Source: Escherichia coli | Lineage (GTDB): Bacteria; Pseudomonadota; Gammaproteobacteria; Enterobacterales; Enterobacteriaceae | NCBI RefSeq assembly: GCF_044324785.1 | Contig: NZ_CP172127.1 | DNA length: 64,000 bases | Strand: one strand, 5' to 3' | Shown here: positions 56,075 through 64,000 of the stretch, in pieces | How positions within the stretch are numbered: the first letter of the stretch is position 1 | Layout of the letters: each line of letters begins with the position of its first letter | The notes under the pieces: generated by a model | Seen by the model: the letters and a program-made list of their open reading frames with translations, nothing else | Databases searched by the model: none | What the model was told of the DNA's origin: nothing | Program-made: the position numbers and the translations under genes

Positions 56075-57757
56075 ATGAAGTCTGCATTAAAGAAAAGTGT
56101 CGTAAGTACCTCGATATCTTTGATACTGGCATCTGGTATGGCTGCATTTGCTGCTCATGCGGCAGATGATGTAAAGCTGAAAGCAACCAAAACAAACGTC
56201 GCTTTCTCAGACTTTACGCCGACTGAATACAGTACCAAAGGAAAGCCAAATATTATCGTACTGACCATGGATGATCTTGGTTATGGACAACTTCCTTTTG
56301 ATAAGGGATCTTTTGACCCAAAAACAATGGAAAATCGTGAAGTTGTCGATACCTACAAAATAGGGATAGATAAAGCCATTGAAGCTGCGCAAAAATCAAC
56401 GCCGACGCTCCTTTCATTAATGGATGAAGGCGTACGTTTTACTAACGGCTATGTGGCGCACGGTGTTTCCGGCCCCTCCCGCGCCGCAATAATGACCGGT
56501 CGAGCGCCCGCCCGCTTTGGTGTCTATTCCAATACCGATGCTCAGGATGGTATTCCGCTAACAGAAACTTTCCTGCCTGAATTATTCCAGAATCATGGTT
56601 ATTACACTGCAGCAGTAGGTAAATGGCACTTGTCAAAAATCAGTAATGTGCCGGTACCGGAAGATAAACAAACGCGTGACTATCATGACAACTTCACCAC
56701 ATTTTCTGCGGAAGAATGGCAACCGCAAAACCGTGGCTTTGATTACTTTATGGGATTCCACGCTGCAGGAACGGCATATTACAACTCCCCTTCACTGTTC
56801 AAAAATCGTGAACGCGTCCCCGCAAAAGGTTATATCAGCGATCAGTTAACCGATGAGGCAATTGGCGTTGTTGATCGTGCCAAAACACTTGACCAGCCTT
56901 TTATGCTTTACCTGGCTTATAATGCTCCGCACCTGCCAAATGATAATCCTGCACCGGAGCAATATCAGAAGCAATTTAATACTGGTAGTCAAACAGCAGA
57001 TAACTACTACGCTTCCGTTTATTCTGTTGATCAGGGTGTAAAACGCATTCTCGAACAACTGAAGAAAAACGGACAGTATGACAATACTATTATTCTCTTT
57101 ACCTCCGATAATGGTGCGGTTATCGATGGTCCTCTGCCGCTGAACGGGGCGCAAAAAGGCTATAAGAGTCAGACCTATCCTGGCGGTACTCACACCCCAA
57201 TGTTTATGTGGTGGAAAGGAAAACTTCAACCCGGTAATTATGACAAGCTGATATCCGCAATGGATTTCTACCCGACAGCTCTTGATGCAGCCGATATCAG
57301 CATTCCAAAAGACCTTAAGCTGGATGGCGTTTCCTTGCTGCCCTGGTTGCAAGATAAGAAACAAGGTGAGCCACATAAAAATCTGACCTGGATAACCTCT
57401 TATTCTCACTGGTTTGATGAGGAAAATATTCCCTTCTGGGATAATTACCACAAATTTGTCCGCCATCAGTCAGACGATTACCCGCATAACCCCAACACCG
57501 AAGATTTAAGCCAATTCTCTTATACGGTGAGAAATAACGATTATTCGCTAGTCTATACAGTAGAAAACAATCAGTTAGGTCTATACAAACTGACGGATCT
57601 ACAGCAAAAAGATAACCTTGCCGCCGCCAATCCGCAGGTCGTTAAAGAGATGCAAGGCGTGGTAAGAGAGTTTATCGACAGCAGCCAACCACCGCTTAGC
57701 GAGGTAAATCAGGAGAAGTTTAACAATATCAAGAAAGCACTAAGCGAAGCGAAATAA
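56075..57757 (+). CDS. ydeN: Periplasmic sulfatase (arylsulfatase family)
   Basis: Start taken at MKSALKKSVVSTSISLILASGMAAFA (signal peptide); sulfatase domain. The formylglycine-motif position carries serine (SGPSR), i.e. a Ser-type sulfatase. Confidence 0.8.
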   Translation: MKSALKKSVVSTSISLILASGMAAFAAHAADDVKLKATKTNVAFSDFTPTEYSTKGKPNIIVLTMDDLGYGQLPFDKGSFDPKTMENREVVDTYKIGIDKAIEAAQKSTPTLLSLMDEGVRFTNGYVAHGVSGPSRAAIMTGRAPARFGVYSNTDAQDGIPLTETFLPELFQNHGYYTAAVGKWHLSKISNVPVPEDKQTRDYHDNFTTFSAEEWQPQNRGFDYFMGFHAAGTAYYNSPSLFKNRERVPAKGYISDQLTDEAIGVVDRAKTLDQPFMLYLAYNAPHLPNDNPAPEQYQKQFNTGSQTADNYYASVYSVDQGVKRILEQLKKNGQYDNTIILFTSDNGAVIDGPLPLNGAQKGYKSQTYPGGTHTPMFMWWKGKLQPGNYDKLISAMDFYPTALDAADISIPKDLKLDGVSLLPWLQDKKQGEPHKNLTWITSYSHWFDEENIPFWDNYHKFVRHQSDDYPHNPNTEDLSQFSYTVRNNDYSLVYTVENNQLGLYKLTDLQQKDNLAAANPQVVKEMQGVVREFIDSSQPPLSEVNQEKFNNIKKALSEAK

Positions 57758-57808
57758 CTAAACCTTCATGCGGCGGATTTTTCCGCCGCCTTATTGAGCG
57801 AGATAGCG

Positions 57809-58966
57809 ATGCACGTTACAGCCAAGCCCTCCAGTTTTCAATGTAATCTCAAATGTGATTACTGTTTTTACCTTGAAAAAGAGTCGCAGTTTACTCATGA
57901 AAAATGGATGGATGACAGCACTCTGAAAGAGTTCATCAAACAATATATCGCAGCGTCTGGCAATCAGGTCTATTTTACCTGGCAAGGGGGTGAACCCACT
58001 CTGGCTGGCCTGGATTTTTTCCGTAAAGTTATTCACTATCAACAACGCTATGCAGGCCAAAAACGTATTTTTAATGCATTACAAACGAATGGCATTTTAT
58101 TGAGTAATGAATGGTGTGCCTTTCTCAAAGAACATGAGTTTCTGGTTGGTATCTCGATCGATGGCCCCCAGGAGCTACATGACCGTTACAGACGCAGTAA
58201 TTCAGGTAACGGTACTTTTGCAAAAGTGATAGCAGCCATCGAGCGTCTGAAATCATATCAAGTAGAGTTTAATACGTTAACCGTCATTAATAACGTTAAT
58301 GTCCATTACCCTCTTGAGGTTTATCATTTTTTAAAATCTATCGGCAGTAAACATATGCAATTTATCGAATTGCTCGAAACCGGGACGCCGAATATTGATT
58401 TCAGTGGTCATAGTGAGAACACATTCCGTATCATTGATTTTTCTGTGCCTCCTACGGCTTATGGCAAGTTTATGTCGACCATTTTTATGCAATGGGTTAA
58501 AAACGATGTGGGTGAAATTTTCATCCGTCAGTTTGAAAGCTTTGTCAGCCGTTTTTTGGGGAATGGGCATACCAGTTGTATTTTCCAGGAGTCCTGCAAG
58601 GATAATCTGGTTGTTGAAAGTAATGGAGACATTTACGAATGCGACCATTTTGTCTATCCACAGTACAAAATTGGAAACATTAATAAATCTGAACTCAAAA
58701 CGATGAACAGTGTTCAACTGACAGCGCAAAAAAAACGGATTTCAGCGAAATGTCAGCAATGTGCATATAAACCTATCTGCAATGGCGGTTGTCCTAAGCA
58801 TCGTATTACTAAAGTAAACAATGAGACTGTTTCCTATTTTTGCGAAGGTTATAAAATCCTTTTTTCAACCATGGTACCTTATATGAACGCCATGGTGGAG
58901 TTAGCTAAGAACAGAGTACCGCTTTACCACATTATGGATGTTGCAAAACAAATGGAGAATAATTAA
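57809..58966 (+). CDS. ydeM: Radical-SAM anaerobic sulfatase-maturating enzyme
   Basis: CxxxCxxC radical-SAM motif ([10 protein letters not shown]) near the N-terminus and C-terminal auxiliary Cys clusters; start taken at MHVTAKPSS. Confidence 0.8.
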
Positions 58967-63352: not shown

Positions 63353-63408
63353 TAGTTCGGATTTTACTTAACCGGGTAAATTCGCCCGGTTTTCGCATGG
63401 AGATAATT

Positions 63409-64000
63409 ATGAGAAACCTCTGTTTCTTACTGACGTTAGTGGCAACTCTGTTGCTCCCCGGGCGACTGATTGCCGCCGCCTTACCGCAGGATGAAAAGTT
63501 AATTACCGGGCAACTGGACAATGGCTTGCGATATATGATTTATCCGCATGCTCAACCAAAGGATCAGGTAAATTTATGGCTGCAAATTCATACCGGTTCA
63601 TTGCAGGAAGAGGACAATGAGCGCGGCGTGGCTCATTTTGTAGAACATATGATGTTTAACGGCACAAAAACATGGCCGGGTAATAAAGTCATCGAAACAT
63701 TTGAGTCGATGGGTCTGCGCTTTGGTCGCGATGTTAATGCCTATACCAGCTATGACGAAACGGTGTATCAGGTAAGTTTGCCGACTACGCAGAAACAAAA
63801 TCTGCAACAAGTGATGGCAATATTCAGTGAATGGGGTAATGCCGCAACCTTTGATAAACTCGAAGTAGACGCTGAACGCGGCGTAATTACTGAGGAATGG
63901 CGTGCCCATCAGGATGTGAAATGGCGCACCTCTCAGGCGCGCCGCCCTTTCCTGCTGGCAAATACCCGTAATTTAGACCGTGAACCTATCGGCCTGATGG
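63409..64000 (+). CDS. pqqL: M16-family zinc peptidase PqqL, 5' part (3' end lies outside the window)
   Basis: Frame-1 ORF hand-translated from ATG 63409: MRNLCFLLTLVATLLLPGRLIAAALPQDEKL... with an inverted zinc motif HFVEH (pitrilysin family); open to the window end. Confidence 0.75.
   Translation, partial: MRNLCFLLTLVATLLLPGRLIAAALPQDEKLITGQLDNGLRYMIYPHAQPKDQVNLWLQIHTGSLQEEDNERGVAHFVEHMMFNGTKTWPGNKVIETFESMGLRFGRDVNAYTSYDETVYQVSLPTTQKQNLQQVMAIFSEWGNAATFDKLEVDAERGVITEEWRAHQDVKWRTSQARRPFLLANTRNLDREPIGLM

Follow-up and report, generated by a model that had tools for sequence, protein, structure and literature searches.

Three groups of described systems bear on ydeN, ydeM, yddA, yddB and pqqL, the five genes considered here, which occupy positions 56075-64000 of a 64,000-nucleotide (nt) stretch of the Escherichia coli contig NZ_CP172127.1 (hereafter the window). 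The first group consists of sulfatase-maturase pairs such as Klebsiella AtsA/AtsB and that of the anaerobic sulfatase-maturating enzyme (anSME) of Clostridium perfringens, in which, as for YdeN and YdeM, a Ser-type SxPxR sulfatase with a signal peptide is encoded beside a radical-SAM/SPASM maturase. The second is the Fus system of Pectobacterium (FusA-FusB-FusC-FusD), which, likewise under iron regulation, brings together a TonB-dependent transporter with a large extracellular site, an M16 protease and a fused ATP-binding cassette (ABC) protein. To it belongs the operon yddA-yddB-pqqL of E. coli K-12 and CFT073 (b1496-b1494), described by Grinter et al. in 2019 as a "protease-associated import system" (PMC6793856); the window contains this very locus, unchanged in gene order, spacing and Fur box, and differs from the K-12/CFT073 operon in that its yddB carries the mutation W322amber. 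The third is Mycobacterium tuberculosis Rv1819c, which transports cobalamin and is described as the homologue nearest to the peptide importers SbmA/BacA (PMC8442886); in it an SbmA_BacA/ABC_membrane_2 domain is fused to an ATPase, as in YddA, while SbmA/BacA themselves have no ATPase domain.

We conclude, with a probability that we put at about 85%, that ydeN-ydeM and the Fur-repressed yddA-yddB-pqqL are adjacent, independent and known modules, that the second of these imports, and that its yddB step is broken in the genome under study. Both modules are already described and are ordinary E. coli content; the only unusual point is that yddB is cut by a stop codon. An earlier description made from the letters alone (the sequence-only reading) had called the gene content the standard E. 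coli complement and not novel, which is accurate for the content but not for its integrity, as yddB is a nonsense pseudogene here. The gene content, order, strand and spacing that it gave were borne out by the open reading frames (ORFs) and by annotation transferred from E. coli N3 and K-12, while its view that the biology is poorly characterised is overtaken by the import system described in 2019 and by the structures 6OFR and 6OFS/6OFT. Three points had escaped that reading: the stop codon in yddB, the end of the window inside pqqL and the small gene yneP between ydeM and yddA.

Gene content of the locus

The ORF list and the annotation transfer place five co-oriented genes on the plus strand, separated by successive gaps of 51, 290, 37 and 56 nt. 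The features on which the argument turns are as follows (lengths in amino acids, aa):

56075-57757, plus strand: ydeN, 560 aa, predicted periplasmic Ser-type formylglycine sulfatase (ORF, annotated in N3 and K-12)
57809-58966, plus strand: ydeM, 385 aa, anaerobic sulfatase-maturating radical-SAM/SPASM enzyme
59253-59271, plus strand: Fur box GCTAATGATAACCATTCCC, 15 of 19 consensus positions, overlapping the yddA ATG at 59257
59257-60942, plus strand: yddA, 561 aa, fused inner-membrane ABC half-transporter and FusD homologue, apparently intact
60980-63352, plus strand: yddB, 790 codons, FusA-type TonB-dependent outer-membrane transporter with a premature stop
61943-61945, plus strand: in-frame TAG in yddB, TGG to TAG, Trp322 to amber
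63409-64000, plus strand: 5' part of pqqL, 197 of 927 codons in the window, periplasmic M16 zinc protease and FusC homologue

The family assignment of every gene is backed by Pfam, NCBIfam and PDB sequence searches. Of 5426 complete E. coli genomes, 5403 match the 8-kb stretch, with identities of 95-99% and a top value of 99.0%; the 25 kb that precede it reached 98.3%. Given these modest top identities, the window comes from an under-sampled E. coli lineage that is absent from the complete-genome collection. The nearest complete genomes among the 5,426 searched are the soil or drain isolates VCSW5/VCSW7 and strain N3.

A nonsense mutation interrupts yddB

With W322 restored, YddB is near-identical to 6OFR over residues 30-790, matches FusA (4ZGV) at 2e-80, carries a Pfam Plug domain at residues 48-163 and has a TonB-box-like EEMTVYA. 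The gene product had previously been called a TonB-dependent-like porin; it is by ancestry a genuine TonB-dependent transporter of the FusA type, with a solved structure (6OFR) that has a large extracellular binding site (PMC6793856). In the window, the TAG at 61943-61945 stands where N3 has TGG and splits yddB into ORFs of 321 and 467 aa. The truncated protein keeps the plug and roughly 130 residues of the barrel, and the downstream 467-aa ORF is devoid of a signal peptide. Trp322 itself is invariant in 10 YddB homologues down to 43% identity. The same base was found in a separately assembled Logan contig, SRR31073010_183 (L002), which is 100% identical to the window over 11,021 nt and reaches via a complete pqqL to gadB. 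A 61-mer around the TAG had no exact match in the 5,426 complete E. coli genomes, the 3313 genomes with a match differing by at least one base.

Compared with N3, K-12 and two other Escherichia, the only YddB changes private to the window are W322* and N398D, and the ratio of nonsynonymous to synonymous polymorphism (pN/pS) in yddB, 0.05-0.09, is similar to that of the other four genes; the lesion is thus recent. With only a 321-residue fragment of plug and partial barrel to be expected, the outer-membrane step is broken here and the system most likely non-functional, so that the YddB of the window would be a member of the system by descent and probably not by function.

Further carriers of the stop codon were sought by an exact look-up of the 321-aa product (7 loci), and contigs L003-L008 were rejected as such, being 98% identical and ending at 61942-61944. 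Clusters of truncated YddB proteins (P0008, P0018, P0023 and P0026) were likewise set aside as a count of pseudogenes, several of them being partial proteins from contig ends.

A Fus-like operon, probably for import

The two remaining proteins of the operon have clear relatives. The N-terminal 197 residues of PqqL comprise a signal peptide and an HFVEH zinc motif, belong to Pfam Peptidase_M16 (3.9e-40) and match 6OFS/6OFT at 1e-114 and FusC (6B03) at 1.8e-22; in the identical Logan contig the ORF is uninterrupted over its entire 927 aa. PqqL has been described as an iron-regulated, active M16 protease of narrow specificity located in the periplasm (PMC6793856), which corrects its earlier designation as a secreted peptidase. 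YddA, a FusD homologue (PMC5095587), is recognized by ABC_membrane_2 (1.8e-43), SbmA_BacA (PF05992, 4.2e-34) and ABC_tran (PF00005, 8.8e-19), with Walker A (GYSGAGKTT), signature (SSGEKQ) and Walker B (FLDE) motifs all present. Its top PDB match over residues 35-552 is 6TQE/6TQF, i.e., Rv1819c (3.5e-67), followed by ABCD1/ABCD4. This architecture, in which a membrane domain of the SbmA_BacA type is joined to a nucleotide-binding domain whose Walker motifs are intact, is that of Rv1819c. The label "ABC exporter" given to YddA in the sequence-only reading does not fit this SbmA/BacA-like membrane domain, nor a best solved relative that is an importer; import is the most likely direction, as suggested by homology to Rv1819c and SbmA/BacA and by the operon context. 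Of the "processing and export or import" once proposed for the three genes, the import part agrees with the importer-like YddA and YddB, and the export part does not.

Taken together, the operon has a FusA-type receptor gene, a FusC-type M16 protease gene with HxxEH adjoining it 56 nt downstream, a fused ABC gene with FusD homology (PMC5095587), and iron/Fur regulation (a 15/19 box here, Fur binding and derepression in the literature). A dedicated TonB homologue corresponding to FusB is lacking, as neither the ydeM-pqqL interval nor the one from pqqL to gadB has an extra ORF of at least 60 aa. As the minimal definition of the family requires only a TonB-dependent receptor and an M16 protease (PMC6042079), this absence does not exclude membership. 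Other differences from the Pectobacterium system, which has its own FusB and another gene order, are that YddB is only ca. 24% identical to FusA (PMC6793856) and that PqqL does not cleave plant or human ferredoxins, so that its substrate differs. In contrast to Rv1819c and SbmA/BacA, YddA shares its operon with genes for an outer-membrane transporter and a protease.

In an intact operon, iron limitation would cause Fur to leave the box at 59253-59271, whereupon the FusA-like YddB, powered by the housekeeping TonB, would carry a protein or another large ligand over the outer membrane. The FusC-like PqqL would then cleave this ligand in the periplasm, and the FusD-like, SbmA/BacA-type YddA may import the released cofactor or peptide over the inner membrane. 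The operon structure, its control by Fur, the structures of YddB and PqqL and the location and activity of PqqL are published; the role of YddA and its direction of transport are what we infer.

Fur control of yddA-yddB-pqqL

A search of the 58967-59256 gap for a Fur box had been recommended, and it was rewarded with a box at 59253-59271 that crosses the yddA start. This 19-mer is one of only two 15/19 consensus matches found in 64 kb by a mismatch scan, and a match of this quality was attained in 10 of 2000 shuffles of the 334-nt region; with no more than 3 mismatches to the consensus allowed, no match was obtained, as the actual box has 4. Positions 59254-59271 match exactly the reverse complement of the published box GGGAATGGTTATCATTAG (PMC3855560). 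Other Escherichia have the box too, and in an Enterobacteriaceae metagenome-assembled genome (MAG) and an Orbaceae genome (L013 and L014) the yddA homologue is preceded, at a distance of 50-65 nt, by a 16/19 box. In previous work, yddA-yddB-pqqL were shown by reverse-transcription PCR to be co-transcribed, their expression was raised in a fur mutant, and genes of the operon, yddB and pqqL among them, contributed to fitness in systemic infection of mice (bacteraemia; PMC3855560). Fur is bound upstream of the operon (PMC4676285), for which co-regulation by RyhB is held possible as well (PMC3855560, PMC4145685, PMC4676285). In this strain, Fur control is predicted from the box and the literature. 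The box covers the annotated ATG at 59257 (M1), gene calls in other contigs start at M10 (59284, 552 aa), and neither ATG is preceded by a clear Shine-Dalgarno sequence. The other 15/19 match of the window lies at 43719-43737 (GATAATGAGTATTACTGTC).

Several observations weigh against the picture of an iron-responsive importer that is broken in this strain. PqqL left the tested ferredoxins and globins uncleaved, and mutants deleted for yddB or pqqL grew without a defect in iron-limited lysogeny broth (both PMC6793856). In CFT073, iron chelation alone elicited no response of the operon (PMC3855560), and a role in iron acquisition is therefore one that we infer. The fold of YddA is of the type IV "exporter" kind, and exporters are numerous among its weaker matches, so its direction of transport is a prediction. 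The Fur box sits on the yddA start codon and not on an obvious promoter, so that either the annotated start (M1, as against M10) or the promoter position is provisional. Lastly, should the window and the Logan contig go back to the same reads, the TAG could in principle be an error of the consensus, and low-level read-through could take place.

The sulfatase and its maturase

YdeN belongs to Pfam Sulfatase (1.3e-70), bears the Ser-type signature VSGPSRAAIMTGR (S-G-P-S-R) and begins with a Sec-type signal-like sequence. It therefore unites the traits of a Ser-type S1 sulfatase, i.e., (C/S)-x-P-x-R with Ser in first place, the sulfatase fold and an export signal; it reaches no NCBIfam equivalog cut-off. 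YdeM has the radical-SAM cluster motif CNLKCDYC (CX3CX2C), Cys-rich C-terminal motifs and the Pfam domains Radical_SAM and SPASM, and passes the anaerobic-sulfatase-maturase equivalog TIGR03942 with 502 bits (cut-off 349); among solved structures, anSME of Clostridium (4K36) is matched at 5.9e-63. The proposal that the two form an enzyme-activation pair is supported by the SGPSR motif and signal peptide on one side and by the TIGR03942 score and the 4K36 match on the other. By analogy with AtsA/AtsB and anSME, cytoplasmic YdeM would oxidise the active-site Ser of precursor YdeN, yielding formylglycine ahead of export by Sec, and mature YdeN may then hydrolyse some sulfate ester in the periplasm. 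Relative to those pairs, YdeN stands apart in that its closest PDB relatives are S1_19 or carrageenan-type sulfatases (3e-52) and that its maturation by YdeM is predicted.

The ydeMN genes are co-transcribed and a target of AraC, and YdeN has been speculated to act on mucin-type sulfates (PMC10878103); AraC was bound upstream of ydeN in the presence of arabinose (PMC3738151). Inspection by eye of 55674-56074, upstream of ydeN, gave no convincing match to the AraC half-site AGC-N7-TCCATA, and AraC control of ydeNM is thus taken from the literature only. The pN/pS of ydeN is 0.01-0.06.

Two modules with separate histories

Gene neighbourhoods were scanned in one genome per GTDB species using a 10-sequence YddB alignment, followed by tblastn with the window proteins. 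Homologues of YddA (A), YddB (B) and PqqL (L) are adjacent in the order A-B-L in the Enterobacteriaceae MAG and in Orbaceae ESL0727, B-L-A in Bibersteinia trehalosi and B-A-L in a Gilliamella MAG. In these four lineages (L013, L014, L023 and L027) the proteins of the triad are 25-61% identical to those of the window, the genes on either side bear no relation to one another, and within 10 kb of the four distant triads there is no gene for a sulfatase or maturase. A linkage that outlasts reordering suggests that yddA-yddB-pqqL constitute one three-gene functional unit, as has been argued before (PMC5095587). The sequence-only reading had proposed such a unit and a check of its neighbourhood; published co-transcription and Fur regulation (PMC3855560, PMC4676285) agree with it, and the linkage proved to be conserved beyond Escherichia. 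In Achromobacter and Bordetella, YddB homologues occur without a nearby protease or ABC gene, in agreement with Grinter et al. (PMC6793856).

The Escherichia representative SCPM-O-B-8794 (L009, 7766-8277) has lost what corresponds to window 55799-58941, i.e., ydeN and ydeM, with yddAB-pqqL intact. The last 25 nt of ydeM are left, which identifies the event as a deletion and not as an ancestral absence.

Several loci met during the scan deserve mention in their own right. Three Achromobacter spp. contigs (L016, L017 and L025; 10118-17855) hold three tandem YddB/FusA-like genes with 31-33% identity to YddB, and no M16 protease or YddA-like ABC gene lies within 10 kb of this triplet. Directly upstream of the YddB homologue of Bibersteinia trehalosi, an ORF (L023, 8615-9901) weakly matches PF01298 (3.5e-5, just below the gathering score), the beta-barrel domain of transferrin-binding protein B, a hint that in Pasteurellaceae a surface lipoprotein may assist in capturing proteins. 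A contig labelled as a MAG of Candidatus Nanosynbacter sp. (L012) shows ca. 99% protein identity to E. coli ydeO-ydeN-ydeM-yddA-yddB and is almost certainly E. coli DNA that was mis-binned into a Saccharibacteria MAG.

Three further features lie in the 290 nt that separate ydeM from yddA:

58932-59054, minus strand: yneP (b4747), 40 aa small protein (K-12 annotation, translations)
59019-59046, plus strand: hairpin, candidate weak-tail terminator of the ydeNM transcript (from folding)
59215-59244, plus strand: sigma-70-like promoter candidate for yddA (consensus scan)

The small gene yneP is convergent with ydeM and overlaps its last 35 nt, an arrangement already listed as a convergent overlap (PMC12288877). 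Its product, validated as a small protein by epitope tagging (PMC6001520), differs from K-12 YneP by two residues (K26R and E27G). The hairpin has a 10-bp stem and an 8-nt loop, begins 53 nt past the ydeM stop, is followed by UUUCGUC and sits, on the other strand, in the 5' coding part of yneP. The 121-nt segment containing it (58960-59080) folds with a minimum free energy of -21.7 kcal/mol (z = -3.5), and 1 of 200 shuffles was equally stable. A consensus terminator scan did not call this hairpin, which has a weak U-tract and was seen by folding only, and we regard it as a candidate terminator of the ydeNM transcript. The promoter candidate, TTGCCA-18-CACAAT with an upstream TG, has 9 of 12 consensus matches; the number of sigma-70-like sites in the region is not above shuffle expectation, so this site is merely a candidate.

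Alternative readings

Could all five genes form one unit, in which YddB imports a sulfated host glycoprotein or peptide for YdeN to desulfate and PqqL to cleave? In most E. coli the genes lie side by side in one orientation, YdeN and PqqL are both periplasmic, and the speculation on mucin-type sulfates (PMC10878103) points in the same direction. The regulators differ, though, with AraC acting on ydeNM and Fur on yddAB-pqqL, and the 290-nt gap with opposite-strand yneP and a stable hairpin intervenes between the two. Moreover, each module has been lost without the other (ydeNM in SCPM-O-B-8794, and the reverse in 6 of 45 sampled complete-genome matches), and the triads of four distant lineages have no sulfatase or maturase within 10 kb. 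A single five-gene unit is thus largely refuted, and we consider it very improbable. Quite unlikely, too, is that yddA-yddB-pqqL process and export peptides or serve in the biosynthesis of pyrroloquinoline quinone (PQQ). The exporter-type fold of YddA, its weaker matches, which include CydDC and type I secretion ABC proteins, and the complementation of Methylobacterium pqqE/pqqF by pqqL, reported in work cited in PMC3855560, would favour such a role. Against it, YddB has a plug and a TonB-box-like motif as in TonB-dependent importers and is homologous to the ferredoxin importer FusA, the best full-length match of YddA is Rv1819c, akin to the importers SbmA/BacA (PMC8442886), no PQQ is made by E. 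coli (PMC3855560), and the PqqF model scores 47 bits, far under its cut-off of 320.

That the system works normally in this strain, because the yddB stop arose as an error in sequencing or assembly, or because suppression or read-through overrides it, is unlikely as well. In its favour, the lesion is a single-base change judged from assembled sequence, and the remaining parts of the operon are intact and evolve under strong purifying selection. Yet the separately assembled Logan contig, identical over 11 kb, has the same base, substitution errors are rare in consensus assemblies, the 467-aa downstream ORF has no signal peptide, and independent inactivations of the operon (in MOD1-EC7003, by insertion sequences and by deletions, see below) are common. 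We retain the reading of two independent modules, the second most likely an importer and with a broken receptor gene.

Recurrent loss of yddAB-pqqL

Incomplete versions of the locus are frequent, as 822 of the 5403 complete E. coli genomes with a match (~15%) cover <80% of the 8-kb query. Among 45 evenly spaced complete-genome matches, 6 keep ydeNM and are without yddA, yddB and the 5' part of pqqL. Two such deletions, those of AVS0947 (L032) and FEX669 (L033), were inspected; their breakpoints lie near 58978 and 59076, and they put ydeM beside pqqL remnants of 918 and 1158 nt, the 5' two-thirds of pqqL being gone. Insertion sequences have also struck the region, with IS1 in yddA of ETEC4067, ISKpn26 and ISEc47 reported together with duplicated fragments of yddA or yddB, and IS2 splitting ydeM (other strains). 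In Escherichia sp. MOD1-EC7003 (L011, 8278-15172) all three genes are damaged, yddA by W281* (TAG), yddB by L673* (TAA) and pqqL by loss of frame after residue 494, and ydeN and ydeM are intact. Where the operon genes are intact, their pN/pS of 0.04-0.09 indicates strong purifying selection. The amber allele of the window is one more of the recurrent, independent losses of a dispensable, niche-specific system.

One may ask if the repeated loss of yddAB-pqqL reflects positive selection and not just disuse, e.g., selection against a YddB used as a receptor by bacteriocins or phages. FusA, the YddB homologue, serves as the receptor for pectocins M1/M2. Nothing relevant came up when the literature was searched for a function of YddB as receptor of colicins or phages, and we hold selection for loss to be rather doubtful. 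If true, the strong purifying selection on intact copies would indicate a trade-off locus.

Other features of the window

No RNA family was detected by Rfam in 56-64 kb. Elsewhere in the window, gathering-score matches were obtained for the Hfq-binding small RNA STnc560 (11870-12083, plus strand, 282 bits) and for IS009 (748-946, plus strand, 227 bits). The gene ydeP (52112-54391) is an intact 759-aa ORF in the window and is annotated as frameshifted in N3, the closest complete genome. The safA ORF (54604-54831) extends to 75 aa if an upstream ATG is used, versus the 65 aa annotated elsewhere.

Biological meaning

The window adds one previously unrecorded nonsense allele of yddB, in itself a minor population-genetic point. 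More generally, yddA-yddB-pqqL emerges as a self-contained three-gene module that recurs across distant Gammaproteobacteria and is often inactivated within Escherichia. This pattern of loss fits a niche-specific function, and could guide the search for the niche in which the import system is of use or for an agent that selects for its loss.

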